Assembly (NCBI GenBank): GCA_000002435.2 | Contig: CM018792.1 | Reading direction: 5' to 3' (one strand) | Length of the DNA: 64,000 nucleotides | Source: Giardia intestinalis | Lineage: Eukaryota | In this document: piece by piece, positions 1 through 23,316 of the stretch | Layout of the letters: every line of letters begins with the position of its first letter | Numbering within the stretch: the stretch's first letter is position 1 | Position numbers and translations under genes: made by a program | Notes under the pieces: generated by a model | The model's database searches: none | What the model was told of the DNA's origin: nothing | The model's input: the letters and a program-made list of their open reading frames with translations, nothing else

Positions 1-3000
1 ACGTCGCCCTATGGGTGTGGCGGAATTTTACAGCCCTCACTGTCGAGCGGCCTTACCCATAGGCATCCCCACAGCTCAGGGCCAGCAGGCGTAGGTGGCG
101 CCCTTGCAGTGAGCCCCAGAGAACAGCCAGCGCGGAGTTTGATACGATCCTTATCATACCTCGCCAGACCTGGTCGAGAGCGCCCCCATTTTCCATAGAA
201 TGGCCCCCAACACAGTCCCAAGGCTGGGCGTAATGGGCAGCCTTTGGATTGCAGGGCGACACAGTGGATACTAGTGCACCCCGGCGAGACCTTGTGACCT
301 GCTTCAGAGGTTGCAAGAAATGCCCGTCTCTGGCCTACGTTTGTGCTAACGCTACGGTCTCAGAACGAAGCGAGGGAAGAACGCCTTGCCAGGCCCCGTG
401 GTAGCCCGTCTGTTTGGGAGACTGCAGATTACTGACTTGTGCGAGGCAACCGGAGGAGCCTGCTGGGCCAGACTACGAGGACTATGAGAGCCGCGGACAT
501 AACAGCCACACGGCCCCTACCTTCTTTCGGCTTCTCGGATTCCAGTTGACGCATCTGGCTGTGCACGACTCTATTTCCCTTTGTCAGGTGCATGGCGCGA
601 AGGTAGAGCAGCCCAGTCACAGCGTTCAACGCGTCTACTGCTGGATGGGCCCGAATAGTAGAAGAATGCCCATGGGTGTAATGACAGCGGCGATTCACGG
701 GTAGTCCACGATTGTACGTTCCACAGCCACCGACCGGAGTAGCCTTCGACTGGGCGTGTCTATACTAAGCCGTGGGCTGCTCTTCGAGGCTCTAGATGCG
801 TTTGATCCCTGCTCATGCATCCTGGCCTTATGCCTGCGGGTCTTTGGCTCGCAGCTATCTGGGCTTCATTTATCATGGACCGTTCGCTATGTATCCTTGT
901 TCCTGGAAAGCCCTCTAATGGCTGACAGAACAGGACCACAGGCTCCTGTGTCGCCGCAGTACGTGTCCGTTTCCTTCACCAGGTGATCGTACTCTCGCAA
1001 ATGACTCTGCCACCGGCTCTGTCGTCTTGGAAGAGTCTATACTGCAGGACTTCCCGTGAACTGTTTCTATGCAGATTAGAAATCTTACGTGCTTACCAAC
1101 GTAGGGATCCAATAACATGGCGCCATGCTCACAGTCCCAGGGTCACCAGACAATGGAGCACGGGGCTGAGAAACTCAGATTGCAGCAGTCCAGCTCTTGA
1201 GAATCCCTGCATATATTAGGACAGAGTGACTGGGCTAGCACACAGTGACATATTGAACCAGCCAGAGAGGCAAACAATCTCCTCTCATGTAAGACCCCTG
1301 TATATCTAGGGCGCCCAGACCATCTGAACTCGTAGGCATGCATCCAGTTCAATATCGGTAATCTAAGCACTGATAGACCGGTTGTGAGGCAGAGCCAGTG
1401 CCGACCCCAAGAGCTCAACTGCTCTGAGGCAGCACATTGTAGGCTATAACATTCTACACACTTCTGCTGATCGACCTCGCGCTCCAGCTGGCGGCAGAGG
1501 AGTGCACAGAAGTAGCTGATGGCCGCCACAGCCACTGCACGGGCCTCCAGGGCAGGGGGTCTCTCTGCCACTGCAATCTGCAGCAGCGTGGGGGCCGCCC
1601 CGTGTGCTGCCCCCTCTGCCGTAGCGGGGCTTCAGGCATGCCATCGGGACTGTCCGACGGTCGCCGGTTGAGCCCTGTGTGCACGGCAGGATGAGAAGAC
1701 TGCCCCACAACGACATGCCCTCGCTGGAGGACACCTGCAGGGCAGGGGAAGCTGTGGCCCACTGGGGGAGTGAACGATCTCAGTGGATCCAGGCGCACTG
1801 CACTGCGGGCCCGTCGGGCCGGTCTCTGACGGGCGCCGCGATCACTCTGCTCGGTCTGGCAGATCACGAGGGGTCTGAGGCCGGTCTGTTGGGAGGAGGA
1901 CCGGGACCCTCGCTGATGGTCGAGCAGAGTCACCACAGGGGGGCACGAGCTCGAGTGAATGAGGGCCCTCTTAGCAGCGCGCATGTCAACCGAGCGAGGA
2001 GAACGACATGGCAGACACCAAAGGAGCCATGACCTCCTGAGCCCTCTGAGGTTTGTACTAGGCTCGCTGGGCTTATCAATCTCAGGCTCTGGTTCGCTCG
2101 AGTGAGCACTGCAAGGGTGGGAAGGGAACCTAAATGGAGATAAGCCTCCACAAGTGGCGGACAGAGTATCTGTGATCGACACTTGCCACTGATGCTGTCT
2201 GGCAACTTAGCTTTGCAGAGGCCCATTGAGTAAGCACTCCAGGCAGTAATAACGCAATCAGCTAGCCATAGCTCTAGACTGCTCCTGAAGACCTGCAGCA
2301 AGGAAAGGCGAAGTCCCCAGAGCTTACCGATGCAGTGCCAGAGCTTATGCTCTTCTTCGATGATCTGCTGAGGCTATCTCAAAGGCTCCAAGACTATGGA
2401 GAGGGAAGCTTGATGGTAGGAATTCATAATCAGTGCTGCTCAGGACCCAGTAAGCCCTCCTCTCCAGTCATGGCGAGCTGCCGGGCCCTGGGAACGTCAG
2501 ATGGCCTTGCCGATGTGCATGGACAGTGGGTAAGAGGATCCCCAACGTCTACAGTTCACAGGAGCTGTTTTACTACAGGCTGTCAGGCTTCTTCCATGAC
2601 ATCACAGGGTTTCTGAAGCAGAGGCCCGGCAGAAAGAAGGTGGTGATAAGATAGCTAGGTCTCCAGCAGTGCAACAGAGAAGACCCTTGCTCTATCAGCG
2701 ATGACTCGCTTCCGTTTCCTGACACAATCGAGCATTGACTGAAGTTACTCACGGGATCCTTGGGGTGTGCTCGTAGGCAGAGGTCCTAGCAGCACAACGC
2801 TGAAGGTGACTGGTAGGTGGAATGAAGAAGTCCGAAGCTCTAGTGCCCACCCTGCACTGGTGCCCAGCCGGCTACAACCCCACAATTGAAGTCATCTCTC
2901 ATTGGGCACTTACCACACAAGGCAAGAAGGGCAGAGGGAATCCAGGGTGTACAATCTGTGTTTGGTGCGCTATCTGGATGATCTGTAAACAATACCGTGA

Positions 3001-3049
3001 ATCGCAAGCTTACCAGTACACGCGTTTCCTTTGTGATTATGAAATAAAA

Positions 3050-3787
3050 ATGTCGTCTGCAGATGATTCGGATCACTGCTCTCAGGAGCACGACTGCGCC
3101 CCGCCCCTCATGCCCGAGAAGGACACGAGCGAAGAGGGCGCAGGCAAGAGCAGCCCCGCCGAGTCTCCACAAACAGATGATGAAGGCAGTGTGGACGAGG
3201 ACGGCGTCACCACGCTTATGAAGGCAGCCAGCAGAAACGACGTGAAAGCGGTGAAGCGCTACATCCCTTATCAGGCAAGGATGGTGGCGAAGCTTGTCAA
3301 GGCGGGGACAATAGAGATACGCGAAGGGACGGCCCTGATGGTCGCCGCAGTGCTTGGACACGTCGAGACAGTGAAGCTGCTGATGAGGCACGAGCGTTGC
3401 ATGAGGGATAGTAATGAATGGACGGCCCTCATGTGGGCGGCGGGCAACGGTTGTACCGAGGTCGTGAAACTACTCCTGGATGTTGAGGGAGGCATGGAGA
3501 AGGACAGGGGCCTTACTGCCCTCGTGTTTGCAGCAAATTTTGGTCACCTGGAGTGTGTCAAGTTACTGCTGGAGAAGGAGAAGGACATAAGCGGCAGATC
3601 TGCCATTCGTATGGCTGGTATGCACGGCTGTTCCAAGGTGGTATCTTTTCTTGAGAGTGAGGGTATTATGGATCCCTATCTGCAGATGCCGCCCAAGAAA
3701 TTCGTGAGTGAACCTGCCTACTTGTTGATTGCATTCGATAATGTACTAGGGCCTCTCCAGCTGTGCAGGGGGACGGCCAGCCAATAG
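3050..3787 (+). CDS. ankyrin-repeat protein (Giardia 'Protein 21.1'-like), about 245 aa
   Basis: About five ankyrin repeats with the TALMxAA / G(H/N)xExVKLL pattern (TALMVAAVLGHVETVKLL, TALMWAAGNGCTEVVKLL, TALVFAANFGHLECVKLL). The ORF track starts at 2822, but the ATG at 3050 is directly preceded by an AT-rich initiator (tgaaataaaaATG), so 3050 is preferred. Confidence 0.7.
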   Translation: MSSADDSDHCSQEHDCAPPLMPEKDTSEEGAGKSSPAESPQTDDEGSVDEDGVTTLMKAASRNDVKAVKRYIPYQARMVAKLVKAGTIEIREGTALMVAAVLGHVETVKLLMRHERCMRDSNEWTALMWAAGNGCTEVVKLLLDVEGGMEKDRGLTALVFAANFGHLECVKLLLEKEKDISGRSAIRMAGMHGCSKVVSFLESEGIMDPYLQMPPKKFVSEPAYLLIAFDNVLGPLQLCRGTASQ

Positions 3788-4028
3788 GGCGAAGTGCTGG
3801 CCGTCAGTGGGTCACACAGCTGCCCGTTTCCGCAGAGGTCAAGGGGAACAGGCCTTCTCACCCCCGGCCGGCACTGGAACGCCGGTGGGTGAAACGGTCG
3901 CGCAGGTGGCCTTCTTGCCCCTGATGCAGTAGCCCTCCGCAAGCATTGGACCACTACAGATCTGTAGACACAAACCCCTGTGGAAACGGATCGTTTCCAA
4001 AACTGTAGATTACCAAAATAAAACCAGG

Positions 4029-6044
4029 ATGGACACTGCCTCGTCTGAGCCTGCAACAGTGGCCTCTAGTGTCCCGCAGTTTACCCTCAATGACCTCTAT
4101 GAACGGTTAGGTGATATACTAAGCAAAGATATCACGGGTATAGTCTACTCTCTCAAGGACTATCCGAGTCTCGTTGTAAAGGTCGCCCCACTAGGTTGCC
4201 TGGAAAAGGATAACACAGACGCTGTCCGACTCGAGCTGGCTGCCCTCCCCGAGCTCTCCCACCCAGGGGTTCTCAGGTATCATCAAGTGATCGAGCACAT
4301 GAATTTCGTCTACTTTATCACAGACCGTTACAACAAGACTCTCGGACGTCTTCTCATTGAGCATATGCAAATGAAGAGTCCTGTGCCCACCAGAGTGATC
4401 CTCTCAGCTATAAGACAGATCGCTACCGCCCTTGCCTACCTTCACAGTGTCAAAAGGGCAGATGCTGAGGGGCTTGTTCACCGCGATCTTAGGTCTACCA
4501 ATATCTCCATCAGTGCAGACGGTGAGCACTTCATCATCGCCGGCCTCGAACTCTGCAGGAACATCTTGTGGAGTGGAAGCACTCTTATAGGAATAGGGGC
4601 ACACACGGCCCCCGAGGTGCTCCTCCACAACGAGCCCAGCCCCGCCTCCGACGTGTGGAGCCTCGGGGTCATCATTTATGAACTAGTAACTCTAAGGATG
4701 CTGGACTTCCTGGAGGACAGGGAGCCAGAGGATGTCTTCGTTGATGGGTGGAGGCCAGACCTGAGCGGTGTCACTGATGGCTTCATGCAGAATGTTCTGG
4801 AGAGGATATTCGTGCTGGATCCTGGGAGGAGGCCGACGGCCAGGGAGCTGCATGAGATGCTCGACACAGCAGATATTTCGGATAACGAGCCGGAACCTTG
4901 GCAAGTGGCGCTGGAAAGTAAGCATGGTTCCTCGAAGATCACTGCGAGTAATACTCATGCCAAGATCGCGCTTTTGGAGGAGGAGGTCAAAACTAAGTTG
5001 AACGAGATTGCTACTCTTAAGGCAACCCTTGAGAACAGGCCAAGTGAAGTCGACGCCCTGGGACAGGAGCCCAGAATTAAGTTAACTAGGATCGACATGC
5101 TTGAAGATCAATGTAGAGAGTACCTAGCCATGATAAAAGTACTAGACAGTAGAATTACACAGATTAGCATTGCGCTAGGTCTATCCAATTCTCAATTCAG
5201 CCTCTTCTTGCTACCCAGATTTATACGCGCCGCACGCACGAATGAAACAGAGACCGTCCGAATGCTGGTCAATGAGGGAGTCTACATCGGTCAGCGTGAC
5301 GAGAAAAAGATGACGGCTCTTATGCATGCGGCCCAGCAGGGGCACACTGGTCCCATTGAATTGCTTGTTAAAGAAGAGAGGGGCCTCCAGGACAAGAACG
5401 GCTGGACTGCGCTCATGCACGCCGCACACTGCAACCACCCTGAAGCAGTCGAGATTCTCGCCCCTTACGAACGTGGGAGAAGAAACAAGAACAGTCGAAC
5501 TGCTCTAATGGTCGCTGCAGAGAATGGCAGTGCAGAAGCTGCTTCCATTTTGGGCCCGTACGAGGATAACCTAATCGACAGTGAAGGCAACACGGCTCTG
5601 ATGATTGCTGAGAAAGCAGGACACAAACTTGTTGCAGAGATTCTCAGTCCGGATGAAGTGGATGGGTGTACAGCGCTTATGCAAGCAGCGAAATGTGGTC
5701 GCATAGATGCGGTAAAACTCCTAATAAAAAACAAAAGCCGTGCACAAAACATACTTGGAACAACTGCTCTCATGGAAGCAGCGTCCTGGGGCCATTCAGA
5801 AATTGTGAAACTGCTAATTGATCATGAAGGAGGCATGCAGGACATCTTTGGAGCGACTGCTCTCATAACTGCAATACGTAATAATCAACTGGAATGTGCT
5901 AAACTTTTAGTAGAGAGGGAAAGGGATATAAAAGATAAGTATGATAAGACTGCCCTTGATATAGCTAAGGCTATGGTCTATCCTGAGATGGTGTCTCTCC
6001 TTAGCAGTAGTGTATCTAGCACCGGCGGCCACAATGACTCTTAG
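4029..6044 (+). CDS. NEK-family kinase-like protein, predicted pseudokinase, with C-terminal ankyrin repeats
   Basis: The N-terminal kinase fold has a VAIK-like lysine (LVVKVAP), HRDLRSTN, TAPE and DVWSLGVIIYEL, but no GxGxxG loop, and DFG is replaced by AGL. The catalytic-loop K is replaced by R. The C-terminal half carries at least six TALMxAA ankyrin repeats. An AT-rich initiator (caaaataaaaccaggATG) precedes the start and an AGTAAAC poly(A)-like motif follows the stop by about 20 nt. Confidence 0.8.
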   Translation: MDTASSEPATVASSVPQFTLNDLYERLGDILSKDITGIVYSLKDYPSLVVKVAPLGCLEKDNTDAVRLELAALPELSHPGVLRYHQVIEHMNFVYFITDRYNKTLGRLLIEHMQMKSPVPTRVILSAIRQIATALAYLHSVKRADAEGLVHRDLRSTNISISADGEHFIIAGLELCRNILWSGSTLIGIGAHTAPEVLLHNEPSPASDVWSLGVIIYELVTLRMLDFLEDREPEDVFVDGWRPDLSGVTDGFMQNVLERIFVLDPGRRPTARELHEMLDTADISDNEPEPWQVALESKHGSSKITASNTHAKIALLEEEVKTKLNEIATLKATLENRPSEVDALGQEPRIKLTRIDMLEDQCREYLAMIKVLDSRITQISIALGLSNSQFSLFLLPRFIRAARTNETETVRMLVNEGVYIGQRDEKKMTALMHAAQQGHTGPIELLVKEERGLQDKNGWTALMHAAHCNHPEAVEILAPYERGRRNKNSRTALMVAAENGSAEAASILGPYEDNLIDSEGNTALMIAEKAGHKLVAEILSPDEVDGCTALMQAAKCGRIDAVKLLIKNKSRAQNILGTTALMEAASWGHSEIVKLLIDHEGGMQDIFGATALITAIRNNQLECAKLLVERERDIKDKYDKTALDIAKAMVYPEMVSLLSSSVSSTGGHNDS

Positions 6045-6221
6045 GCTCTCTGCGACCCACAAGTAAACTGCCGCTCTCTTAGAGGGGCAAGGCCTGGAGG
6101 AGCAGCGTTGCAGGCTGGTGCCTCGGGTTTCTAGCCTGCGCCCGGCACCATAGAGCAGGTGCTCCGAGCTGCCCGCCCACGGTATTTCTGAGGAGCCGCG
6201 ATCGCAATTGGGAGGCAAAGA

Positions 6222-6974
6222 ATGGCATTTATTGAGGCGGCCAAGGAGAACAGGCTGGACTACGTCAGGGCCCACAAGGCCGCGGACGCAGGCCAGAGGG
6301 ACGCAGACGGGAAGACGGCGCTCATGTGGGCCGCCGAGGCCGGGCACACCGCCGTCGCCCTGGAGCTGGTCGACGCAGAGGCGGGCCTGGTCTCGAACGA
6401 CGGGTCCTTTGCGCTGATTGCGGCGGCAAAGAGGGGGAACCTCGAGCTGATCCAGGCCCTTTTCGAGAAGGAGGGGAGGCTGCGGGACGCCGGCAAGCTC
6501 TCCGCCCTCAACCACGCCTCCAGGGCGAAGCAGTTCGAGGCGGCCAAGGTCCTCCGGCTGAAGACCATCGAGACGATGGACGCGGCGATGCTGGAGCAGC
6601 TCCGGCAGAGGGTCGCGGCCACCTACACCGAGATGGCCAAGAAGTCGCAGCAGGCCGAGGTCAAGAGCCACAACATGGCCATCTTCCGCTCGTTCTTCGA
6701 GGCGTTCTACTCCCTCTCCTGCTCGGGGATCGACCAGGGGGCGGAGATCTCGGAGGAGCAGCTGAACAAGTCCCTCGAGAAGTGCCTGGGCGAGATCCGC
6801 AAGCTCCTCAACTCGAAGAAGTACACGAAGTGCGTGAAGTGCCGCGCCAACGCCCCCAACCTGGTCTGCATGCCGTGCAAGCACTACGTCCTCTGCAAGG
6901 ACTGCGGGAAGGACGTGGCCAGCGAGGTCTGTCCTGGTCTGCGAGAACCCCCTTGGCACACTAGTAGGCACTGA
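6222..6974 (+). CDS. ankyrin-repeat / C-terminal RING-finger (MIB/IAP-type) protein; 3' end appears frameshifted
   Basis: Ankyrin repeats ([36 protein letters not shown]) are followed by [35 protein letters not shown], which fits C3HC4 through the seventh ligand. The eighth Cys is missing in this frame (CPGLRE) and is restored in the +1 frame (CPVCE). The region is very GC-rich, so long antisense ORFs overlap it. Confidence 0.7.
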
Positions 6975-7341
6975 TAGTACCGCTAAGGCATATGTAGGAG
7001 TATATGGCTGCTCCCGGTGTACAGCACCAACAGCTCTAACAACAGCTGGCATGACTGCTGCTGTGTGTACCTCCTGTGACAGTGGTAAGAAGCCCAACAA
7101 GGATGGCAGTGGGTGTGTAGTATGCTCTGACACCAACTGCAAGAGCTGTGTGGTGGACGGTGTGTGTGGGGAGTGCAACAGTGGCTTCAGTCTAGACAAT
7201 GGCAAGTGTGTGTCTATGAGCACGAACAAGAGCGGGCTCTCCACGGGGGCCATCGCTGGCATCTCCGTCGCGGCGGTTGTCGTCGTGGGGGGCCTCGTGG
7301 GCTTCCTCTGCTGGTGGTTCGTGTGTAGAGGGAAGGCGTAG
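6838..7341 (+). pseudogene. VSP (variant-specific surface protein) 3' fragment: CXXC-rich segment, transmembrane helix and CRGKA tail
   Basis: The called ORF (7051-7341) encodes [20 protein letters not shown] and [13 protein letters not shown] motifs, then [26 protein letters not shown] and a terminal CRGKA, the conserved VSP C-terminus. There is no signal peptide or N-terminal domain. The same frame stays open upstream to 6838, including CSRC. Confidence 0.6.
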
Positions 7342-7561
7342 GTACTTAGGTAGCAAACGCTGTGAGTGGTGTAGGGACTTCATAGGGTGCTGGCAGTGGG
7401 ATGCGCACTAGAGTTGAGGGTGGAATCGTGCGAACCAGCTATTTAATCTAGCATCGTTATCACCATTGTTAGAAAACAGGGCACTCGGTGCTATCTTAGA
7501 TAAAAGCCAGACATAGGCAGTTCTAGGGGCGATCGAAGTAGTGAGAGCTTTAAAATTTAAA

Positions 7562-7855
7562 ATGACGAGACCAACTCTGGAATTGCACATTAAGCTCGGT
7601 ATGACCATCTTTGACACCACGTTCAACAGATGTAAAGTGGCCCATGCAAAGGACGTCATAGTGCAAGCCCATTTAGACGATAAAATTAAGACTCTCCGAG
7701 AGCGCGCGCTTTCTAGTCTGTCTGTCTCCGTCACTCACGGTGATCTTCATTTTCAAGGATGTCCCCTTGATCCTCAGCAAACTGTAGCAGAGGCAAGATT
7801 GTCTAACGGGGATAGGCTCTACCTTTTTTACTCGGTTCCACGAGGATTGGAATGA
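7562..7855 (+). CDS. small ubiquitin-like (beta-grasp) protein, about 97 aa
   Basis: The ATG at 7562 is preceded by an AT-rich initiator (ctttaaaatttaaaATG). The sequence LELHIKLGMTIFDTTF...LHFQGCPLDPQQTVAEARLSNGDRLYLF resembles ubiquitin beta1-beta2 and the LIFAGKQLEDGRTLSDY...LHLV region, but there is no terminal GG. Confidence 0.45.
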   Translation: MTRPTLELHIKLGMTIFDTTFNRCKVAHAKDVIVQAHLDDKIKTLRERALSSLSVSVTHGDLHFQGCPLDPQQTVAEARLSNGDRLYLFYSVPRGLE

Positions 7856-7878
7856 AGTTAATTCTTTGCCACATCTTT

Positions 7879-8361
7879 TCAACGTTGTAGATAGGTTCTC
7901 ATTAGCACAAGGAAGTCATTATTGGTTGATTCCCTTACTAGCCATCTAGTGTTAAATTCAGCAGCAAGAGCGGTCTCCTCCTCGGCCTTCAGGCCCAGGC
8001 GCGCGGCGGCCCGGTTGGCGAAGTAGACGGCGCGCTGGTCTGGGGGCTCGTTGTTCGCGGCCGAGACCTCGATCGCCTGGGTGAAGAGCCGGATCGCCTC
8101 CTGGAAGTCCTCCGCCTTGAAGGCGGCGTTGCCCTGCGCCTTGAGCTCGCTGGAGCTTGTGCTGGAGACCGCCGGCGCCTTCGCCCCGCTCAGGATCTGC
8201 TCCAGGTCGCCGTTGCCGTGCCTGACGTCCTTGAGTCCGAAGCAGTCCCGGAGGCAATCGATGGCGACGTCCAGGTTGTCGGTGTCCTCAACGGCTTGCG
8301 CAGCCCTGAGGTAGAGGAGGTACTCGACGACGAGCCTCTTGGCGGCCAGCCTTGTCGTCAT
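7879..8361 (-). pseudogene. truncated duplicate of the SGT (Sgt2/SGTA-like) gene
   Basis: The first 134 codons are identical to the full-length SGT gene at 21757-22638. Identity ends exactly at the inverted-repeat boundary (7961), after which 26 unrelated codons run to a stop. The 5' initiator region is retained. Confidence 0.7.
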
Positions 8362-11300
8362 CTATTTTTAAGCAGTCGTTCACTCCCTCTCAAAGTACTC
8401 TCGCTGGTCCATGATCACAGAAACCACCGCGTTCATGTCGCGCCCGAGCCTGACATATGCCTCCCTCACCCGGTTGTAGTTCAGGTCGCCACCACAGATC
8501 CCGATGATCGTGGCGATGTTGTCCTCGTCGTCCGCGGTCAGCGGAGGGGGCTGCTCTGCAGGCTGCGGCGGCGCCCTTTCCCTTGGAATAAGGATCCCTC
8601 TCCCGGCCATCCCTGCCTCGATCATGTTCAGGTAGAGGTGGAGCACCTCAAGGAGCAAGTCGCGATCCTCGTTGAATCTCAGCACCAGATTGGGGCTCCA
8701 GTCGGATATCTGGGTTGTAAACATCTCCAAGAAGTTCGGTGTCTGGAGTATCTGCTCTAGCTCCTCGGTGCTGTACATGTGTGGTCTGTGGCTGTGTCTG
8801 GCCGCGCCCATGTGCCGGAGGGTGTCCTCGAGATCCTCTTCTGTCGGATCTTCGGCGATGATGGCAGCTGCCAGATCCATGTTGTTATTAGCCAGCTCGA
8901 GCGATATCTGCGCCAGCCGTGGCCTACAGGAAAAGGTCTCTACTAGCTGTGCGACGAGGTCCGAGTTGTTGCTAACTGGGTCTAGTTCTAAGGCATCTGA
9001 ATTGGATCCGGACGAGGAGTCTTGCACCTCAGCATGAGGATCTCGCGAAGCAGCCGATTCAATTTGCCGGGCCTGCGCGACCCCTGCGGCAGAACTGCTG
9101 GGAGGCGCTTCAAGGATCCTTCCGCGAGGTTTAGCCTGAGTGAATACTACGGTATCCTGAGTGATATTTGGAACCTTCGACAGTAGAATACCGTCATCAT
9201 TCAAGATAGATGCGTTGAGAATGAGACGGATGGTGGGCGCCTCTGCGGAGATGGCCTCAGCAACCTTCTTCCGCAGATCGCCGACGGTGCTATCTGGAAA
9301 AAACTCGAATGTCCTTGGCTCGAATTCCTTCACTGTGGACCTAACCGCGATCCTGATGCAATCAGACATTTTTTGTTTGCATAGACTAATAATTCACTTT
9401 ATCTCAGAGGGTGCGGTCACGGTTATCTCACCGGAGTAACAATCCGTTGTGCTCTGTGAGTGCCGATTGCTCTGCGGAACCATTTCCAGCGCCCTGACAA
9501 ATGAACGGTTAGAGCGTAGGGCCTTGTTAGCATACTGTGTATCCTCGCCTGCCACAAACTCTAACCCTAAGAAGTCGGCCATTTCGACATTGTTTGCTGA
9601 TGTTTCATGCCTAGACGCGAGGTGCGGCGCCTTCGACTGCGCTCGGCTCTTAGGCTTGAAAGCATTTGCTGCATGTAAATCCCCAAGCTGCCTTTCCTCT
9701 CTTCCGCAGGCGGCAGTGTTTTTCCGAGCAGGTAAAGAAACATCGCCAACTGATTGATGCCTTGCTGACAACTCAAGTTTGTTCTGAGACATATTGCCTT
9801 GAAGCTTACTCCCGTTATTAGGTAGGATGTTTCCCCCTTGAGACCTATTAGAAGTTAGTGAATTCTTGACTGTCGGGACGATTTCTTCTTGAGTTGAGCA
9901 GGAAACTACATCCCTCGCCGAAGCAGAAAGGTGACCTTGCTTGAGTGAGGCACCAAGCTCGCCTGCAATAGAGCTGCCACTCAGACGTGTACACGCAAGA
10001 TTAGCTGAGCTATCGTTTTGACAGATGATGATAGAATGGCTCTCCCCTTCTGTGTGAGGAAACTCAACAATGGTGTCCCGGCCGGAAAAGGAAACCCGGT
10101 CCTTTGTGGAAGTCGCTGGTTGCCCTTTAGCTCGTTTCTCGACCGCTTCAACACCTGCACTGGCCATGTTCTGCTTGCTAGTGTACCTGCTCTCCGAAAA
10201 TAACTCACCAGAGGTAACATTAGCATCATCCTCACTCATCGATGAAGTGGAATGCTGAGTCTCGACCTGCGATAGCCTGACATGTCGGCTTTCAAGGCAG
10301 TCAGCCGTAACAACTGTGTGGCCAAGCTTACTCAGGTGCTTCCCGTCGAAGTCGACGCTTTTGTTTTGCCGTAAGATGGACTGAAAGTTGGAATTGCGTA
10401 GTATGGAAGAGTTAGACAGCGCATGTCGCACACTCTGCTGAGATGAAGGATTGTCCGCGTCACATGTCCTTGGCGTCTTTGCACTAACTCTGAATTCATT
10501 GGTAGTCGTGGCACTATTTTGTGATAGAGATGTTCTGCTCAGCGAGTAGGGATCTTTGCTTTCCTGCCCCAGCGGAAGCGTGACCAGGCTTATGTTGCTA
10601 TCGCTGGAGGGTGTCTGTGGGAGGAGAGGGGCCGGACGCAGACGCTGAAAATCTGTTGAATGAGGTGCTCTGTCGCTATAGACTGGTGGTGAAGCTACTG
10701 AATCCCCTGTCAGAGGGAGAGTTGGCGGTATATAAATGGGGGTTATAGAAGTGTTTTGCCTGTCGTTCCTCATGTTGCTAAGCGGAACGTGCTTCGGTAT
10801 CTGAGTATCCTTGTAAATCGTAGAATCTTCTGTCAGGTGGCTTTCATTCTTTACATCCAAGTCAATCACTGTGGTCGAGGAAGCATGCGCCGAATGGACA
10901 TCGCCGGGGTCTTCCGACGAGGAATCCGAATAGTAATAGTAAGACTCTTCGTCGCTCTCCATTGAGTTGTAGTCCAGTTGACTGTGGTCACTGTCCTTCT
11001 TCTTGCTAACTGGTTCCTGTTTTTGCGCAGCAGGAAGTGTTGCCCTGGACTGAGTAGACGACGTAGTAATGGGCATTATGTCGGGCATTTTTCCGGTGAT
11101 GATAGGGAAAACCCGGGTAGCTTTTGGCCGAGTAGACTCTGACTTGGCAGAGTTTGTTACAGGGAAGGGCAAGCTTGCTATCTGCGTGATTAGGGGGAGC
11201 TGAGTATATGGCACCTTTTTCAACGGCAATGACACTGATGTTGCATTTTGCAGGGTCGTCAGTCGGTTTGGAGACACAATGACGGGCGCGGGCTGTACAT

Positions 11301-12089
11301 CTGGGCATAACGGAATTGATCGTTTTGTCGAGATCGACTCTGATGTATTTAGTGGAAACTTTACAGACTGTTCCTGCAAACAAGAAGGGTCTTGAGCATT
11401 AGTTGTTCGACGCGCAGAGCTCACGTGCATCCTATACCGACGATCCTTACTTGATGTAATTCGGGGCGCCCCCTGTAATTGGTACGGAGGAACAAGTTTT
11501 GGTACGGAAGTTCGGAACGGGATAGCCGAGCTTATCTCACTAGCTTCGTCTTGCTTAGTTCGTCCAAGAGTGAAGCAAATATTCCCAAAGTTTTCCGGAA
11601 ATTTCGTTGAAGGAATGACAATAGAGAGTGGAGGCGGGCGGAAGCTGGAAGAGTCACTAACAGTGCAATCGCTAGTAACCCTACTAAGAGAGAAGTTTGC
11701 TGGGCGAGCCGGCTCATTCGGCATGTGGAGGGATATACTTGAGCCCATAGAGACGCCAGCGGCTTCAGGAATGGGCAAGCCACCAAGCTGATTCTGAGAA
11801 GCACCGAGCCCCACCTCCCTCTCGGATCCGTTAGACTTAGACTGTCTTTCTATTTCCCGAGAAGACTTCTCGTTACACACAGCACTACAGGAGGCTACTT
11901 TTACCTCTGCAAGGTCTGGCCTAAACGAGTCGGCACTTTTCACCTCTTCCACGTTGTTTAGGGCTGTTGCGTGACCTGCGCATGTCTCTTGGCGGCCTTC
12001 AAAGGACGACGTTTTGCTAGTCACCTCCTTACACTCTTCAAGAGACGGCGGCGCGTCCGAGTCCAGCGCGGAAATCTGTCCGCTGCGCC
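7961..12089. repeat. inverted repeat arm A (4129 bp), reverse-complement of 18029-22157
   Basis: Every ORF in the arm has an identical reverse-strand twin, and coordinates map as x to 30118-x. Junction bases were checked by eye at 7961/22157 and at 12089/18029. Confidence 0.85.
8380..9369 (-). CDS. UBL-UBA domain protein (ubiquilin/Dsk2/Rad23-like shuttle-factor architecture), copy 1
   Basis: The N-terminal ubiquitin-like fold is IRIAVRSTVKEFEPRTFEFFPDSTVGDLRKKVAEAIS...TVVFTQ. The C-terminal UBA-like helix bundle is IATIIGICGGDLNYNRVREAYVRLGRDMNAVVSVIMDQ. It is 329 aa and identical to the copy at 20749-21738. Confidence 0.7.
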   Translation of the reverse strand: MSDCIRIAVRSTVKEFEPRTFEFFPDSTVGDLRKKVAEAISAEAPTIRLILNASILNDDGILLSKVPNITQDTVVFTQAKPRGRILEAPPSSSAAGVAQARQIESAASRDPHAEVQDSSSGSNSDALELDPVSNNSDLVAQLVETFSCRPRLAQISLELANNNMDLAAAIIAEDPTEEDLEDTLRHMGAARHSHRPHMYSTEELEQILQTPNFLEMFTTQISDWSPNLVLRFNEDRDLLLEVLHLYLNMIEAGMAGRGILIPRERAPPQPAEQPPPLTADDEDNIATIIGICGGDLNYNRVREAYVRLGRDMNAVVSVIMDQREYFERE

Positions 12090-15000
12090 TTTCAAATGAG
12101 CTTGTAATCGTCTTCTGCCCCAAAATCCCTATACTCTCTGGGGTTCCTTCTGTTCGAACTTCGGTGTCTATGAAAGCTTGAAGTTCATTGGGAGAACTTG
12201 TTTGCGAGAGAGCATACCCCAGCCCCTTGACAGAGTGATTCTGGTCTTTGGGAAGGTTCTTAACTAGCGTGTCTATACGCAGTTCGATTAGAGAGCCTGT
12301 GTTTTCCCTATAGAACGAGCCCTTTAGGGGCGTGGGAAGTAAAAACGAGGATTCAATAGCAGCTTCATAGAGAGACTTGAGTGATGAGGTGGAGCGTTGG
12401 CTGAGTTCGTTGCAGGTTATATTAGCTCGTTGTTGGCATGCATCGACTGGGGCGCGTGTGCAGTCCACCATCGAGGATTCAGGTACATCATCCAGACCAG
12501 GGATTTCGCAAAGCTGTGACGTGGAGGAAGAAACGGACTCAATCCGCAAAACAAGGGAGGTTAGCGATGGACACGATGAAGCATCACTCAACGCTACCGC
12601 ACCCAGCTCATCGTCATCGTATTGTGGTGAGCAGCTTGGCATCGGAGAAGATAAGATACTTATGGAGGCAGTGCTTATATTCTGGGAGGAGGTGAACACA
12701 GAGTCGCGATCCTTCAAGACTTTCGGACCAAGCTGAGAAAGATGAATGGCCAGAGACGCAGCCGCCCCCAGTGCATAGCCTACTTGCGCCTCTAGTGATA
12801 TGTAGGGGGCATTTGGAATGCAGGTAACGAAGCCTGTGTAATGTCTCCAATCGAAAACTGCGCCAGATCTAGTATTTGTTGCACAAGTACACTTATTGTA
12901 GGGAGTGCACGACGTAGAAGAGACACCGTCTTTGCTGATGGGAGATGCAACCTTCTGGGATTCTAGTGAGGAGGCAAACAAGTTGGGTAAGTACTTGTTA
13001 GAAAGGGTCAGCATCTTTTCCCGAATATGAATAAGCTTAATATCAACACTACGACTCATCACAGAAAGGGGCACGGAGCGGAAACTTTGAACATCAAAAG
13101 AGTCAGAGCAAACCCCCGAAGTTTGCCCCATTGCCTGCGTGCATGGATCGGGCAAAGTAACTGCAGAAGATAGAGGCATATCTGCGGAATTCTGCGGTGC
13201 ATCACCTTCGTTAAAAATATGTCCGGATATGGTCCTAATAGGAGGTTTAGAATCGTAACTAAACACGGAGCCACTGAGGCGGGAAGTTGAATAGATCTGT
13301 CCATGTTTTAAGAGCGAGCTATCCTTGCTCGTAGGAACCCCTGTGACGCCTCTGCCATCTTTCAGACAGGAGGTGGTCTGGAGAGATTGAACTACGGTGT
13401 TAAAAGTACAAGGTGGGATATTATAATGTGCATCTTTAACAATAGTTAAAAGGGCAAACGACTTCAAACCTACCATAGCCTCTTCTGCGGAGCTTTCCAT
13501 GTCTTCAGTATCCAAATCTAGGCCTAATTGCAAAATGATCTCTACAAGAGAGGCAAAAAGGTGCTCGTCATCTGACGCTGGGAGCAAGGTCGTGATGCTA
13601 CTCTTTGACGAAACCCGAGATATGGTTTTGAGGTGGTCCTCCTCGTCTGTTGTAAATGTCCTGTTTTGATCCGAATCGTCCGTTACAATCATGTGTGGCG
13701 CAGCTACGGATCGATTGTATGCCATTTTTACTTTGGAAAGGCTTGATGTTGCTGTCTCCAAAGAATCCAGCCCAATCAACTCAGTCTTGCTGGAGAGGGA
13801 GTAAAGGTCTGTAACGTTTTGACTACGAACCCCCTCGTCTTCTATCAAGCTCTGATTGTCTGAGTCTTCAGAGTTGTATCGAATGTGGTTAGGAAAGTCG
13901 CAAGTCTGGTTAGCCAAAGGGCTGTTAGAAATGTTACAGACCATGTTGTTTAACGATGACCCGACAGTTCTGGTCTTAGTATCGTCTAAGCGACCTGTCC
14001 TTGAAGTAGACGAGAAGGTGTCACGAGAAAGGTCTTTTGTGACGCTAGCCGCGTCGGCTAAATAATCTATAGAAAAGGAAGACACGTTTGAAGGAGCAAG
14101 ACTCTCGTCCAGCCCGCCACCAGCAGTATGACGGTATACAGACGAGTAGGCGCCAGAATCTTCTGCTCGAACGCGGGCCTTCTTATAGGTCTCAACTGGA
14201 ACATGGCGAAGTATTTCACGTAGTTTTTTAGTAGCGTGGACGGATCTGCGTACACTCATACGACTGGAGAGGTTTCCATCACGACTGCGAGGAACCAGCA
14301 GCACCGGGTCAGAAGAGGTTGAGTCGTTTTCTGTGTCTGGCTCGGAAAGTGATTCAGCCTGATACCGACCATTGTTACTGGCAACAATCCCACAAATTTT
14401 TAGTTCGCGCTCATTGAAAAGCTTCAGATCGGCGTCGTTGTTTATGCGAGGTCTCCAGTGGGTGGGAAGCGTATATAGAAACTCTTCGTCGGGATAGACT
14501 GGAAGGCGATCGAGAAGGTCCTCATCGAACTGGAAGGGCTCATTAGTGTGCTCAACTGCTTCTGTTTCTTCGTAACTCTTGTATGCATAAATGAGTTCTT
14601 GGAGCTCGGGCGTTTGATAGTTGAGAATCTGATTTCGCGAGTATCCACGAGTGAAAAAGGGATGATCCATAAGCGAGTGCAAGTGTTCCGAGCATCCGTA
14701 TCGCTTGGTAGGGTGGGCCATGAGGCCGTGGATCAGATCCCAAGCTTCGTCGCTGATGAAGTCAGGCCGAGACACACACTTATCATAGTCCTCTTCTGTC
14801 TTTATAGCAGCCAATCGCTGCACTAGCTCGTCAGGAGTCGATGCAACAAAAGCAACTTCGCCGGTCAGCAGCTCATATAATATGAGCCCGAGGGCCCAGT
14901 AGTCCACCGACCGCCCATAGGCCGGTGCATTGAAGATTTCTGGAGCCATATATTCAACGGTGCCAACTATCTCACGTTCTCCAACCAGTAGGGAGCTTGT

Positions 15001-17406
15001 TTCTCTTGTTGAAGAAATCTTCGTGGTGCTGGTCTGCTTTTCGGATACCTTGACAGCCTCGATAAGAGGAGAAGCACCCTCGTCAACGGATGGAAGCTGC
15101 TCTGCAAGCCCAAAGTCCGCTAAGAGAATATGACCATCATCACGGAAGAGGAAATTAAGCGGCTTGAGATCTCTATGCACAAAGATATCGATGAGTTGCT
15201 TAGACTCGTCACAGGGAAGATTTTGCGGAGGTGCAGGAGGTTTTGGTGGTAAAGCTTGCGAGAGATGAGGATCCACTCTCAGCTGTGACTGCTTAGGAGC
15301 CGCCGACTTGGCTGCAGGTTGCTGGTTCCTGAGAACATTTGTCGTGGAAAGAGACGCGGTATGTCCTGACGATTGCGTACGGGACAGATTCTGCGCAGTA
15401 GTGCCGGACAGGTTGAAACGCTCAGGAGGAAGAGGATGTAACGGAATTCGAGATCCATTTATTACTGGATTAGGCAGATGCTGCATGGTTGTACTATCTA
15501 AAGAAGCAGCCCCAGATTGTTCTGGAGGCAGCGCACTGATCATCATCGGCCGACTAAGAGCAGGGGAGGAAAGCCCGGGGACTAGCAGATTTCTTTGTGA
15601 ACTATTCTCAACGCGAGTCCTAGATGCTAATATGAAGGAGGAGTCGGCATCGCGTCCATCTAAGAAGCTTGCCTCCGTTATCTCTACATTTTCAGCCGGG
15701 GTTGCGACCTCTATACAGTCCTCGGATTCGGGCTGCCAGAAGGAGGCCTGAGTGAGTCCAGACAACGGTCCGCTCAGAGTAGATGTAGCATTTTCTGAAA
15801 TGCTAGCAGAGCCTCGTTGTATAGAACTAGAGGGCGTTTCCGAAGAGGTATGCAAGGGACAACGCTTACTTGACAAAAGATGGCTAGAGTTCTGATTTTG
15901 TTTCGATGAGGAGCTGGAGTCGTCGGGATCGGTGGTGGGAGCAGTTTCCATGCGACTCAGTAACGATCTCTGGACGACAGGCTTTGGACCCTGTTTGGAC
16001 TGTTTGCTGGAAAAGATAAGAGGAACAGGGGGGATGAGATTCGAAATGTCGCTTTTTTCCACAAGGTTCATGGGCGTGACATCGACCACCGGAGGAGGAA
16101 TTGGAGGTATTGCAAATCTGAGAAGCATCTTGTCAAATGATACTTGGTGGAGTGAAGCATTCGGTAGCGGAGCTGATTTGCTTGTGGAAAAGGCTGGGAT
16201 CTTATTTGTATTGGCCCTAGAATTCTTAAGGGCAAGTTTTGCTTTTTGTAGGCTACTTATTGCTGATCGCTGAGATTCTGAAAGAATGGGTGACGACCCC
16301 AAAGGCAAGGAAACCTTAGGTTGCGCACTCTCTGAGCGCACGGAGGCTTTGGCTTGAATCTCAAACAAGATGCTGTCGGTGAAGTGAGACGATACTTCGC
16401 TAGTCTTGGCAGAGGCTACCAAGTCATTGGATTCTGAAGAATTGGAGTCGGAGCTGCTGGAGGAATGGTAGTGACTATTTGCCTCACGCCTGGCCTCATC
16501 TGCCATGATTTCATTCACTACCTCTGCATTAGGCTGGTTCTGGTGCAGATCCAGATGCCTTTCCCCTCGATGTGCGATATGACCGTGTAAAGTTAAAACA
16601 GCGCAAACTATTTCTGCAAACCATCTCCTGGCCCAGCCTTCGCTGACACTCCCGACTATGTCCAGAAGAGATTTCATATCACCTCCAGCAGCATAGTCCA
16701 TAACAAAGTATATGTTTTCATCGTCGTAAAACGCATAGTGGAGGCCGACGATGAAAGACGAGCGAATGCGCATCATTATGCAGCGCTCTATGCGAAGACG
16801 TATTCTGTCTGAAAGATTTTTCATCTTGCTCTTGTTGATTTTCTTGAGGGCGAACAGCTGACCCGAAAACTTGTGCTTCACAAGGTGGACAGACGCATAA
16901 GCGCCAGAGCCAATGTCCTTTAAAAGGTAGAAGTAGTCCATTGAAATACCAGACCGCCGAGAACGCAAAAGAAACGATTCACGTATGTAAATCGTGTTCA
17001 TGAAGTCAGTCAGTGAAATCTGCTGAGTGTCCGACAGTGCCAGAGAATTCATGATAGTTAGATAGCGCTCCTTGTGTACCTGTTCACTATCATCATTTAG
17101 TCTGGGTAGTGCCTCGCCATTTTGAATGGCGTCATTTAGAGATTTAGAAGTATAGGGGTTCAATTCTGAAGAGAGATCATTGAGAAGGGGGCGTTGGCTG
17201 GAGTACTGCTTGCAGCGCTCTGGGCTAAGCAGTTGCTGCGACGCCTCTTCAATGAGATGCTCAAACATTCCTATCTGCGCTTCCTTGAGCCGGTGCTCCC
17301 GGCTCAGCAGATATGCAAACATCTCTTGAATGGAATCCTCCACAAACTTACTGAACATCGATATCCGCCCCTCGGTATCTTTATCCAACTCAAGATCTGA
17401 AGTCAT
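9394..17406 (-). CDS. giant (2670 aa) AGC-family-like (MAST/Greatwall-like) Ser/Thr protein kinase with large low-complexity inserts and a long S/T-rich tail
   Basis: The N-lobe has GSGAYASV, FALKKI and YFVMDYAAGGDMKSLL. A degenerate catalytic-loop-like stretch (LTLHGHIAHRGERHLDLH) is followed by an insert of about 445 aa, then genuine HRDLKPLNFLF, LADFGLAEQ, a 45 aa insert, GTVEYMAPE, DYWALGLILYELLTG and an AGC-type HPFF tail. The ATG at 17404-17406 has an AT-rich initiator. The 3' 2.7 kb lies in IR arm A. Confidence 0.75.
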   Translation of the reverse strand: MTSDLELDKDTEGRISMFSKFVEDSIQEMFAYLLSREHRLKEAQIGMFEHLIEEASQQLLSPERCKQYSSQRPLLNDLSSELNPYTSKSLNDAIQNGEALPRLNDDSEQVHKERYLTIMNSLALSDTQQISLTDFMNTIYIRESFLLRSRRSGISMDYFYLLKDIGSGAYASVHLVKHKFSGQLFALKKINKSKMKNLSDRIRLRIERCIMMRIRSSFIVGLHYAFYDDENIYFVMDYAAGGDMKSLLDIVGSVSEGWARRWFAEIVCAVLTLHGHIAHRGERHLDLHQNQPNAEVVNEIMADEARREANSHYHSSSSSDSNSSESNDLVASAKTSEVSSHFTDSILFEIQAKASVRSESAQPKVSLPLGSSPILSESQRSAISSLQKAKLALKNSRANTNKIPAFSTSKSAPLPNASLHQVSFDKMLLRFAIPPIPPPVVDVTPMNLVEKSDISNLIPPVPLIFSSKQSKQGPKPVVQRSLLSRMETAPTTDPDDSSSSSKQNQNSSHLLSSKRCPLHTSSETPSSSIQRGSASISENATSTLSGPLSGLTQASFWQPESEDCIEVATPAENVEITEASFLDGRDADSSFILASRTRVENSSQRNLLVPGLSSPALSRPMMISALPPEQSGAASLDSTTMQHLPNPVINGSRIPLHPLPPERFNLSGTTAQNLSRTQSSGHTASLSTTNVLRNQQPAAKSAAPKQSQLRVDPHLSQALPPKPPAPPQNLPCDESKQLIDIFVHRDLKPLNFLFRDDGHILLADFGLAEQLPSVDEGASPLIEAVKVSEKQTSTTKISSTRETSSLLVGEREIVGTVEYMAPEIFNAPAYGRSVDYWALGLILYELLTGEVAFVASTPDELVQRLAAIKTEEDYDKCVSRPDFISDEAWDLIHGLMAHPTKRYGCSEHLHSLMDHPFFTRGYSRNQILNYQTPELQELIYAYKSYEETEAVEHTNEPFQFDEDLLDRLPVYPDEEFLYTLPTHWRPRINNDADLKLFNERELKICGIVASNNGRYQAESLSEPDTENDSTSSDPVLLVPRSRDGNLSSRMSVRRSVHATKKLREILRHVPVETYKKARVRAEDSGAYSSVYRHTAGGGLDESLAPSNVSSFSIDYLADAASVTKDLSRDTFSSTSRTGRLDDTKTRTVGSSLNNMVCNISNSPLANQTCDFPNHIRYNSEDSDNQSLIEDEGVRSQNVTDLYSLSSKTELIGLDSLETATSSLSKVKMAYNRSVAAPHMIVTDDSDQNRTFTTDEEDHLKTISRVSSKSSITTLLPASDDEHLFASLVEIILQLGLDLDTEDMESSAEEAMVGLKSFALLTIVKDAHYNIPPCTFNTVVQSLQTTSCLKDGRGVTGVPTSKDSSLLKHGQIYSTSRLSGSVFSYDSKPPIRTISGHIFNEGDAPQNSADMPLSSAVTLPDPCTQAMGQTSGVCSDSFDVQSFRSVPLSVMSRSVDIKLIHIREKMLTLSNKYLPNLFASSLESQKVASPISKDGVSSTSCTPYNKCTCATNTRSGAVFDWRHYTGFVTCIPNAPYISLEAQVGYALGAAASLAIHLSQLGPKVLKDRDSVFTSSQNISTASISILSSPMPSCSPQYDDDELGAVALSDASSCPSLTSLVLRIESVSSSTSQLCEIPGLDDVPESSMVDCTRAPVDACQQRANITCNELSQRSTSSLKSLYEAAIESSFLLPTPLKGSFYRENTGSLIELRIDTLVKNLPKDQNHSVKGLGYALSQTSSPNELQAFIDTEVRTEGTPESIGILGQKTITSSFERRSGQISALDSDAPPSLEECKEVTSKTSSFEGRQETCAGHATALNNVEEVKSADSFRPDLAEVKVASCSAVCNEKSSREIERQSKSNGSEREVGLGASQNQLGGLPIPEAAGVSMGSSISLHMPNEPARPANFSLSRVTSDCTVSDSSSFRPPPLSIVIPSTKFPENFGNICFTLGRTKQDEASEISSAIPFRTSVPKLVPPYQLQGAPRITSSKDRRYRMHVSSARRTTNAQDPSCLQEQSVKFPLNTSESISTKRSIPLCPDVQPAPVIVSPNRLTTLQNATSVSLPLKKVPYTQLPLITQIASLPFPVTNSAKSESTRPKATRVFPIITGKMPDIMPITTSSTQSRATLPAAQKQEPVSKKKDSDHSQLDYNSMESDEESYYYYSDSSSEDPGDVHSAHASSTTVIDLDVKNESHLTEDSTIYKDTQIPKHVPLSNMRNDRQNTSITPIYIPPTLPLTGDSVASPPVYSDRAPHSTDFQRLRPAPLLPQTPSSDSNISLVTLPLGQESKDPYSLSRTSLSQNSATTTNEFRVSAKTPRTCDADNPSSQQSVRHALSNSSILRNSNFQSILRQNKSVDFDGKHLSKLGHTVVTADCLESRHVRLSQVETQHSTSSMSEDDANVTSGELFSESRYTSKQNMASAGVEAVEKRAKGQPATSTKDRVSFSGRDTIVEFPHTEGESHSIIICQNDSSANLACTRLSGSSIAGELGASLKQGHLSASARDVVSCSTQEEIVPTVKNSLTSNRSQGGNILPNNGSKLQGNMSQNKLELSARHQSVGDVSLPARKNTAACGREERQLGDLHAANAFKPKSRAQSKAPHLASRHETSANNVEMADFLGLEFVAGEDTQYANKALRSNRSFVRALEMVPQSNRHSQSTTDCYSGEITVTAPSEIK

Positions 17407-17436
17407 TAGGGTAACTTTTTTGGTTCAAAACTAAAT
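17407..17436. promoter_or_regulatory. 30 bp AT-rich bidirectional initiator region between divergent kinase and LRR genes
   Basis: The sequence tagggtaacttttttggttcaaaactaaat separates two ATGs that face away from each other. This matches the short AT-rich Giardia promoter architecture. Confidence 0.5.
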
Positions 17437-17994
17437 ATGACTCAGCGCCTCGGAATCGTTGACTTTTCCAATATAGACGTCAAGTCTCCTCAGGAGCTTG
17501 TGGAGGAAGAGTCCAATTGCAAGACTCGCAAGCCGGTTAAGGTCCAGGACGCTAAGAAACCGCGACCTGGGGACCAGGGACTCCGCATTGCAAATTGCGA
17601 GCTCAACACGCTATCTGGGATCACTACCCTTGTCGACGCTGCAATATGGTATCCGGAGCGGCTGTGCATGATGGATCTATCCTGCAATAAAATCACCACC
17701 GTTACTGAATTGGCGAATTTCCCAAACTTACGCATTTTATATCTACAGGGGAATCGTATCCAGGACGTCAGGGATCTAGCTCCCCTGTCGTCACTTTCTC
17801 TCTTAACATCCTTGACAATTCACGGAAATCCACTAGTTGCACAGAAGAACTTTCGACCATGGATCGTCCACAATCTCCCTCAGATCACCAAGCTGGATAA
17901 CATCCCTGTAACTGCTCGTGAGCGGAGAGACGCCGAGCAGCTTGTAAAGCTGGGGGCTGTTAGTTTAGTGCGAGATAACAATCTCAATGTCTAG
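17437..17994 (+). CDS. leucine-rich-repeat protein (SDS22 / LRR-cap type), 185 aa
   Basis: LRR consensus runs in LSCNKITTVTELANFPNLRILYLQGNRIQDVRDLAPLSSLSLLTSLTIHGNPL, followed by an LRRcap-like PWIVHNLPQITKLDNIPVT. Confidence 0.75.
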   Translation: MTQRLGIVDFSNIDVKSPQELVEEESNCKTRKPVKVQDAKKPRPGDQGLRIANCELNTLSGITTLVDAAIWYPERLCMMDLSCNKITTVTELANFPNLRILYLQGNRIQDVRDLAPLSSLSLLTSLTIHGNPLVAQKNFRPWIVHNLPQITKLDNIPVTARERRDAEQLVKLGAVSLVRDNNLNV

Positions 17995-23042: not shown

Positions 23043-23297
23043 TTACTTCTGCTCCGCCGCACGGGCCTGTCTTGCCTTGGGGGTGTAGAGAAGAAGGTCA
23101 TCAATCAGGTCAACATGCGTGAGGAGCATACGCCGACAGCAATAGCGAGTAAGGCCGAGTTCATCCAGCGCCCGCTTAGCAGGAGTCTCTGAGCTTCCAC
23201 TTTCTTCTGCTCCGTATTCTCCTAAAAGCTTAAGGTATTTCTCGTATAGACTTCCAATGACCTTCCCGCAGGTGAAGCACCGAACAGGGATGATCAT
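23043..23297 (-). CDS. RPB10: DNA-directed RNA polymerases I/II/III subunit RPB10 (RPABC5)
   Basis: [15 protein letters not shown]...[18 protein letters not shown] is the RPB10 signature, including the CxxC...CC zinc site. The track ORF (to 23411) is over-extended. The Met at 23295-23297 has an aaaaaataATG initiator and corresponds to the RPB10 N-terminus. An unusual C-terminal extension of about 20 aa is present. Confidence 0.9.
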
Positions 23298-23316
23298 TAT
23301 TTTTTGGTGCATAGGA

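Follow-up and report, generated by a model that had tools for sequence, protein, structure and literature searches.

Within the AGC protein kinases, the NDR/LATS family, represented by yeast Cbk1 (PDB 4lqs) and human STK38/NDR1 (PDB 6bxi), is marked by an N-terminal helix with the signature E-S-x-L-L-R-S-R-R, an insert of 30-60 amino acids (aa) between the DFG of subdomain VII and the APE of subdomain VIII, and an AGC-type C-terminal tail. Kinases with far larger inserts are also on record. The passages of PMC6930252 that deal with them place a 548-aa insert inside the activation loop of MASTL (Greatwall), between DFG and APE, and describe giant surface-loop inserts in human RPS6KC1 (480 aa, between helices D and E), CDC7 and Plasmodium kinases, and passages of a 2025 kinome re-annotation give large disordered inserts for many Giardia kinase domains (PMC12538575). 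The subject here is GK004, a kinase of 2670 aa encoded in a window of 64,000 nucleotides (nt) from Giardia intestinalis (contig CM018792.1 of assembly GCA_000002435.2), with NDR-type features and an insert at another site, the turn between helix E and beta6; a long insert in that turn has no mention in those passages of the two sources.

That the GK004 kinase domain is split was already published in 2011: a large insert divides it, and it is NDR-like once the insert is trimmed out (Manning et al., PMC3218828). The relevant entry, G003/GK004 in Additional file 1 of that paper, with which the open reading frame (ORF) in the window agrees over the ~400 residues printed in the table, assigns it to AGC, NDR, NDR-unclassified, calls it ‘novel’ and without a GiardiaDB ORF identifier, and lists a serial analysis of gene expression (SAGE) signal, a 1:1:1 presence in WB:P15:GS and the status ‘Active (K,D,D present)’ (PMC3218828). 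What is added here is the exact site of the insert, its distribution and length range in diplomonads, a structure prediction, and an element near the C-terminus that is like a hydrophobic motif. The gene very probably encodes the second NDR-family AGC kinase of Giardia intestinalis, a divergent one, with an intact core and a long loop predicted to be disordered.

Insert site and kinase core

A preliminary description of the window, made from its letters, had pictured a giant kinase whose catalytic loop is duplicated around an insert of ~445 aa rich in Ser, Thr and Pro. Part of that picture stands. The gene is a single ORF of 2670 codons on the minus strand, and its translation holds the motifs quoted, LTLHGHIAHRGERHLDLHQN at aa 271-290 and IFVHRDLKPLNFLF at aa 741-754, together with DFG and APE. 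The insert is real and its Ser+Thr+Pro content is 33%, but its size needs amending, as 467 residues separate H274 at the end of helix E from F742 at the start of beta6, where ordinary AGC kinases have 3, and ~451 of the 467 come after the stretch with His-Arg (HR) that had been taken for a first catalytic loop. In phmmer comparison with PDB sequences the N-lobe block stops at LTLH (Cbk1 H219) and the next block begins at FVHRDLKP (Cbk1 F223), and Pfam matches Pkinase in two separate stretches (E 6e-46). This places the insert in the turn that joins helix E to beta6, ahead of beta6 and a catalytic loop that are both intact.

The two halves are predicted to build one bilobal AGC kinase fold from which the insert loops out. 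An AlphaFold2 (AF2) model of aa 130-1000 from a 96-sequence alignment (an earlier run with 6 sequences was uninformative, with a mean predicted local distance difference test score (pLDDT) of 38.7) has pLDDT mostly >90 at aa 130-280 and 736-1000, and <50 at aa 283-294 and nearly all of 311-735, in keeping with the earlier picture of a kinase split by a very large low-complexity insert. Helix E runs to aa 273 in the model; GHIAH is modelled as coil and RHLDLHQNQPN as coil of low confidence, aa 294-309 (AEVVNEIMADEARREA) come out as a helix with pLDDT 50-68, and aa 742-751 form beta6 and the catalytic loop. Foldseek against the PDB aligns the AGC kinases ROCK, PKA and Akt across both lobes, with target-normalised template modelling (TM) scores of 0.82-0.85 and root mean square deviations of 2.2-2.8 A for Akt1 and PKA. 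The catalytic core is complete, with a Gly-rich loop, K188, E207, HRD 744-746, N751, DFG 764-766 and APE 821-823, and the invariant columns of the 96-sequence alignment fall on G168, K188, E207, H274, D746, K748, N751, D764 and D835; from its catalytic residues the kinase would be expected to be competent.

The elements of the gene, in window coordinates, are:

9394..17406, minus strand: the whole ORF, GK004 (AGC/NDR-unclassified) of G. lamblia WB, 2670 aa; XP_037901905.1 / KAE8303469.1 / A0A644F4C9
14647..16939, minus strand: protein kinase domain, aa 157-920
16933..17019, minus strand: N-terminal regulatory helix of NDR/LATS type, aa 130-158, ending ...IYIRESFLLRSRRSGISMDYF; putative MOB-binding region, aligning to Cbk1 87-105 (KESQFLRLRRTRLSLEDF); helix in the AF2 model, pLDDT 83-90
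16585..16932, minus strand: kinase N-lobe through helix E, aa 159-274, with the Gly-rich loop, K188 and E207, terminating in LTLH
15184..16584, minus strand: entire helix E - beta6 insert, aa 275-741, 467 aa, Ser/Pro-rich and predicted disordered, with an ALPPKP island near the distal end that is also in G. muris
16537..16584, minus strand: HR-like stretch GHIAHRGERHLDLHQN, aa 275-290, the supposed first catalytic loop; coil in the model, similarity to a catalytic loop not significant
16480..16536, minus strand: proximal conserved island QPNAEVVNEIMADEARREA, aa 291-309, with QPNAE[VI]xN common to the Giardia-like species called L003 below; helix predicted at aa 294-309, pLDDT 50-68
15154..15183, minus strand: genuine beta6 and catalytic loop FVHRDLKPLN, aa 742-751
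15109..15117, minus strand: DFG, aa 764-766
14947..15108, minus strand: activation segment, 54 aa from DFG to APE, with an NDR-type extra insert of ~30-35 aa and E812 at the presumed NDR1 Ser281 position
14647..14946, minus strand: APE to the end of the kinase C-lobe, aa 821-920
14392..14646, minus strand: AGC-type C-terminal tail, aa 921-1005, PVYPDE...LPTHWRPRINNDADLKLF, kept in G. muris, the L003 species and Hexamita; pLDDT ~90 to roughly aa 990
9574..14391, minus strand: Ser/Thr-rich low complexity, ~1600 aa, aa 1006-2611; the gene model GL50803_00112962 is annotated on the protein's last 784 aa
9556..9573, minus strand: FLGLEF, aa 2612-2617, acidic and hydrophobic-motif-like, 58 aa from the C-terminus

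Sequence comparison points to the NDR family, not to MAST or Greatwall. Among PDB sequences phmmer ranks yeast Cbk1 best (139.7 bits), ahead of MRCK, PKA, RSK, STK38 and Greatwall and 16 bits over MRCK and PKA; Greatwall (PDB 5loh) scores 115.8 bits. The orthologues in G. muris and Spironucleus salmonicida are themselves annotated ‘Kinase, AGC NDR’. The alignment to MAST, Greatwall and NDR kinases that the preliminary description had proposed is answered in favor of the last of these, with Greatwall lower and the MAST domains absent. Membership of MAST was considered and rejected, Pfam finding nothing but the kinase domain in the 2670 aa (no DUF1908, no PDZ), and MAST kinases have been reported lost from Giardia. 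The suggestion of a Greatwall-style split survives as an analogy only: Greatwall too is an AGC kinase whose halves, ~500 disordered aa apart, still make one catalytic domain, but there the insert follows DFG, whereas in GK004 it lies between H274 and F742 and precedes beta6 and HRD. With other giant-insert kinases GK004 shares disordered surface-loop inserts in an intact fold and differs in the site. Large disordered inserts being recognised in Giardia and other parasite kinases, the relevance of GK004 beyond Giardia kinase biology is small.

The insert across diplomonads

Orthologues were found by an exhaustive HMMER search together with contig and cluster look-ups, and insert length was taken as the number of residues between LH and the hydrophobic-hydrophobic-HRD that follows. 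The comparison of orthologue lengths that had been recommended finds five taxa with an insert at this site, and 3 residues there in Dysnectes:

G. intestinalis WB: 2670 aa, insert 467
G. muris, TNJ29228.1 (P0141), ‘Kinase, AGC NDR’: 2075 aa, insert 332
Giardia-like genome, Logan SRR31929897, locus L003, ORF 2731..17574, plus strand: 4947 aa, insert 1239
Spironucleus salmonicida, XP_067768399.1 (P0142), ‘Kinase, AGC NDR’: 628 aa, insert 113
Hexamita inflata: 627 aa, insert 127
Dysnectes brevis (P0009, transcriptome protein in EukProt), a free-living fornicate: 904 aa, 3 residues (LLHARGFVHRDLKP), no insert

A further orthologue, GLP15_3657, is that of P15. The L003 locus is on a 76-kb contig of a G+C-richer genome, and the gene caller used an internal Met there (P0143, 3857 aa) and so missed the N-lobe.

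All the diplomonads examined thus have an insert at the helix E - beta6 turn, and their common ancestor probably had one too; because they share the site, the insert is neither an artefact nor recent. A disordered, Ser/Pro-rich segment, 467 aa long in WB, would have grown in the short surface turn from helix E to beta6, looping out and leaving the fold undisturbed, with both length (113 to 1239 aa) and sequence free to vary since the ancestor and nothing but short islands (QPNAE, ALPP[KR]P) retained. Pairwise comparison of the inserts by BLAST gives weak, composition-driven alignments except for two such islands, ALPP[KR]P (WB and G. muris) and QPNAE[VI]xN (WB and L003). For the latter the observed score was reached by 0/898 control windows and by 20/3000 shuffles. 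An unusual insert site, kept in the diplomonads examined despite near-total sequence turnover, makes this turn a clean example of a permissive kinase loop.

Other homologue searches are less informative. With the insert included, the matches were confined to distant kinases and the 90% cluster of the protein itself, and with the insert spliced out the results were dominated by two-domain RSKs. The proximal part of the insert as the sole query gave no matches, its own protein likewise not being recovered. The proline-rich island at the distal end, ALPPKP in WB (aa 727-732, 15211-15228, minus strand) and ALPPRP in G. muris (aa ~569-574), has a BLAST E of 0.78, weak alone, and may be a docking motif.

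Inteins are rare in nuclear eukaryotic genes, and to our knowledge none is known in a protein kinase. The Dysnectes orthologue has a canonical-looking one at aa ~285-630, exactly within WALG|CILYEML of the C-lobe. Its first residue is Cys, it ends ...VQHN and is followed by Cys, and Pfam matches Hom_end_hint to it with E 8.7e-13, scoring 49.2 bits where the gathering cut-off is 32.1.

The HR-like stretch and the origin of the insert

The 16 residues that follow helix E in WB, GHIAHRGERHLDLHQN, were previously described as a degenerate HRDLKPxN look-alike, and the insert as possibly having entered the catalytic-loop codons with a short target duplication. On such a reading a tandem or target-site duplication of the beta6 and catalytic-loop codons would have come first; the upstream one of the two copies then decayed to IAHR...HLDLHQN as the stretch between them grew. 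It has some appeal in that IAHR after LH is nearly in register with a hydrophobic-hydrophobic-HR (at LH+2, not LH+3), with an HMM (hidden Markov model) of AGC kinases reaching 7 positions in, and in the loose likeness of HLDLHQN to HRDLKPxN. The protein-level tests nevertheless go against it. Smith-Waterman alignment (BLOSUM62) of the 25 residues after LTLH with the protein's own catalytic loop gives a score of 16 (HLDL with HRDL), which is not significant, being reached by 346/2566 windows of the same protein (13%) and by 16% of random 25-mers drawn with the insert's composition. With a position-specific scoring matrix (PSSM) of 21 columns built from 142 AGC kinases, the best of the 24 offsets from LH that were tried ranks 38/2650 positions, unremarkable given 24 offsets. 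When the real tail of 20-30 residues is appended to the N-lobe, a profile HMM from 91 reference AGC kinases gains 2.5 bits (over GHIAHR), a gain equalled by 114/300 shuffled tails (38%) and by 36/300 other pieces of the insert; for the L003 tail the gain is 1.2 bits and is matched by 161/300 shuffles (54%). At the DNA level, local alignment of the two junction regions scores 6 (6 nt, CATCGA), as do 79% of control windows, and a search for direct repeats found none linking the two insert junctions. On all five tests the HR-like stretch resembles a catalytic loop no more than chance would allow, and it does not align to subdomain VIb, which the preliminary description had named as grounds for refuting its reading; the duplication idea is not supported, and the place of the insert is the turn between helix E and beta6, not the catalytic-loop codons.

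The orthologues bear on the same question. G. muris reads LHGHIQPENSV..., which fits the plain absence of the 13 residues AHRGERHLDLHQN, and Spironucleus and Hexamita both read LHGTDV... after helix E, the HR-like stretch missing. P15 is identical to WB in the stretch, but is a close relative. As the stretch is missing from three taxa that carry the insert at this site (G. muris, Spironucleus and Hexamita), it is no signature of the insertion event, and an unconstrained relic would not be expected to last since the diplomonad ancestor. Two observations do pull the other way, against the HR-like stretch being just the start of a free loop. L003 has EFHK after LHG and then IDHHDVQDSN, with a PSSM rank of 3/4927, and the latter fits H-x-D-hydrophobic-x-x-x-N with catalytic-loop spacing, a weak hint, in sequence terms, that something loop-like was once there. 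In addition, WB and P15 have 0 differences over the first 45 insert residues and about 13 over the next ~100 (manual count), which suggests some constraint on the proximal part of the insert. A conservation of the pseudo-loop between WB and L003 suggested by MAFFT was rejected, the two stretches not being significantly alike, with 67% of control windows scoring as high. Relic duplication is, on this balance, very unlikely and close to refuted. A variant would take IAHR...HLDLHQN of G. intestinalis and EFHK...HHDVQDSN of L003, 16-35 residues, as the eroded upstream copy of an ancient beta6 and catalytic-loop tandem duplication from which the insertion would have started, in the ancestor of Giardia or of the diplomonads; two lineages would have kept this copy because it gained a regulatory role, and G. 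muris would have deleted it. This variant is likewise very unlikely. The ‘second catalytic loop’ is therefore not to be propagated as a duplication: GHIAHRGERHLDLHQN would be merely the first 16 residues of a fast-evolving loop, its HR and HxD looking coincidental.

Selection rather than descent might be invoked for the proximal element. Were aa 275-309 a selected regulatory module, a pseudo-catalytic-loop or pseudosubstrate-like segment with a helix packing on the core, and the HR and HxD residues functional, then the identity of WB and P15 just mentioned, the retention of QPNAE[VI]xN between WB and L003 and the predicted helix at aa 294-309 would all fit. Constraint is demonstrable, though, for QPNAE and the helix and not for the HR-like residues, G. 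muris is entirely without the 13 residues, and aa 283-293 are modelled at pLDDT <50, so that we hold such a module to be unlikely. The other way out, that the real protein is contiguous and the insert stems from misassembly, from an intron or intein that went unrecognised, or from a mobile element, could draw on the omission of the gene from the original GiardiaDB annotation (‘novel’) and on the intein of the Dysnectes orthologue, though this is at another site. It is countered by the identical 2670-aa sequence (XP_037901905.1 / KAE8303469.1, titled ‘Kinase [Giardia intestinalis]’) being recorded on 52 contigs, by 0 in-frame stops in the insert where each of the other five frames has 9-29, and by the in-frame insert at the same site in five taxa, chromosome-scale assemblies among them. 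The artefact that the preliminary description had allowed for is accordingly not borne out. A Giardia intron 3′ motif (CTRACACRCAG-type) does not occur in the gene, Pfam has no domain inside the insert and thus no Hint or transposase domain, the gene has no tandem repeats of note and the insert no terminal repeats; because of the lack of intron motif, Pfam domain and notable repeats, intron, intein, mobile element and assembly error are unlikely. The junctions, H|G...I|F, are not of intein type. All told, an artefact or non-coding interruption is scarcely credible, and an in-frame disordered loop in the helix E - beta6 turn is the reading carried forward.

Regulatory elements and genomic setting

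Set beside NDR/LATS kinases, GK004 has the N-terminal helix, RESFLLRSRRSGISMDYF where Cbk1 has KESQFLRLRRTRLSLEDF, and it also has the AGC C-terminal tail. Between DFG and APE, where a 45-aa insert had been noted, an extra insert is indeed present, but the two motifs are 54 residues apart, opposite Cbk1 250-306, and the excess is ~30-35. By analogy with NDR/LATS kinases the helix would bind MOB1, and the kinase would act in a pathway of mitotic-exit or morphogenesis type; MOB genes, MOB1 included, exist in Giardia (PMC7761452). The differences from the family are the 467-aa insert before HRD, a Glu in place of the activation-segment Ser, and the want of a canonical F-x-x-[FY]-T-[FY] beside the kinase domain, in place of which an acidic FLGLEF occurs ~1600 aa downstream.

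The Glu is E812 (REIVGT), three residues before the Gly of VGT, at what we take to be the position of NDR1 Ser281 from comparison with NDR1 and PKA. The corresponding residue is Val in G. muris, Ser in Hexamita and Dysnectes, and Thr in L003. A Glu there might make that step constitutive.

The C-terminal element is defined by the pattern F-x-G-hydrophobic-[DE]-[FY], which occurs exactly once per protein in 5 of the 6 orthologues, 32-105 aa from the C-terminus, with 0.01-0.02 occurrences expected by composition. The matches are:

WB: FLGLEF, aa 2612
G. muris: FDGIDF, aa 2029
L003: FAGFDF, aa 4842
Spironucleus: FVGLDY, aa 596
Dysnectes: FAGMDY, aa 842

Hexamita has the near-match SFGLEL only. 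In its sequence the element looks like the acidic AGC hydrophobic motif of F-x-x-F-[DE]-Y type, and FLGLEF, which in WB is ~1600 disordered residues from the kinase core, would dock on the N-lobe as an acidic hydrophobic motif. No hydrophobic motif was reported for GK004 in the 2011 kinome paper, and Pkinase_C, which a Pfam scan of the 2670 aa did not detect, was likewise noted there as not found (PMC3218828). The remainder of the protein is, as had been described, low complexity rich in Ser and Thr (Ser+Thr+Pro is 30% of residues 1011-2670), and the disordered insert and the 1600-aa tail may serve as regulatory or scaffolding linkers, with phosphorylation or docking sites for instance. The protein seems to retain the full set of AGC regulatory elements, among them a putative acidic hydrophobic motif, with giant disordered linkers spreading them apart, and this layout could guide the design of constructs for the Giardia MOB-NDR pathway or for drug-target screening.

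The genes around the kinase are typical of Giardia and include a protein like the variant-specific surface proteins (VSPs), Nek kinases with ankyrin repeats and large ankyrin-repeat proteins. Within the kinase ORF itself, GL50803_00112962 (XP_037901906.1, 784 aa, ‘hypothetical protein’; 9394-11748, minus strand) is identical to the last 784 aa, starting from an internal Met. It is a nested same-frame gene model in the current WB annotation, and probably dates from before the kinase itself was annotated. Searching the literature for GL50803_112962 gave no matches. Three long ORFs near the kinase gene are without a Pfam match at E <= 0.001, all on the plus strand:

23257-29448, plus strand: ORF of 2063 aa
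43680-47456, plus strand: ORF of 1258 aa
18094-20724, plus strand: ORF of 876 aa

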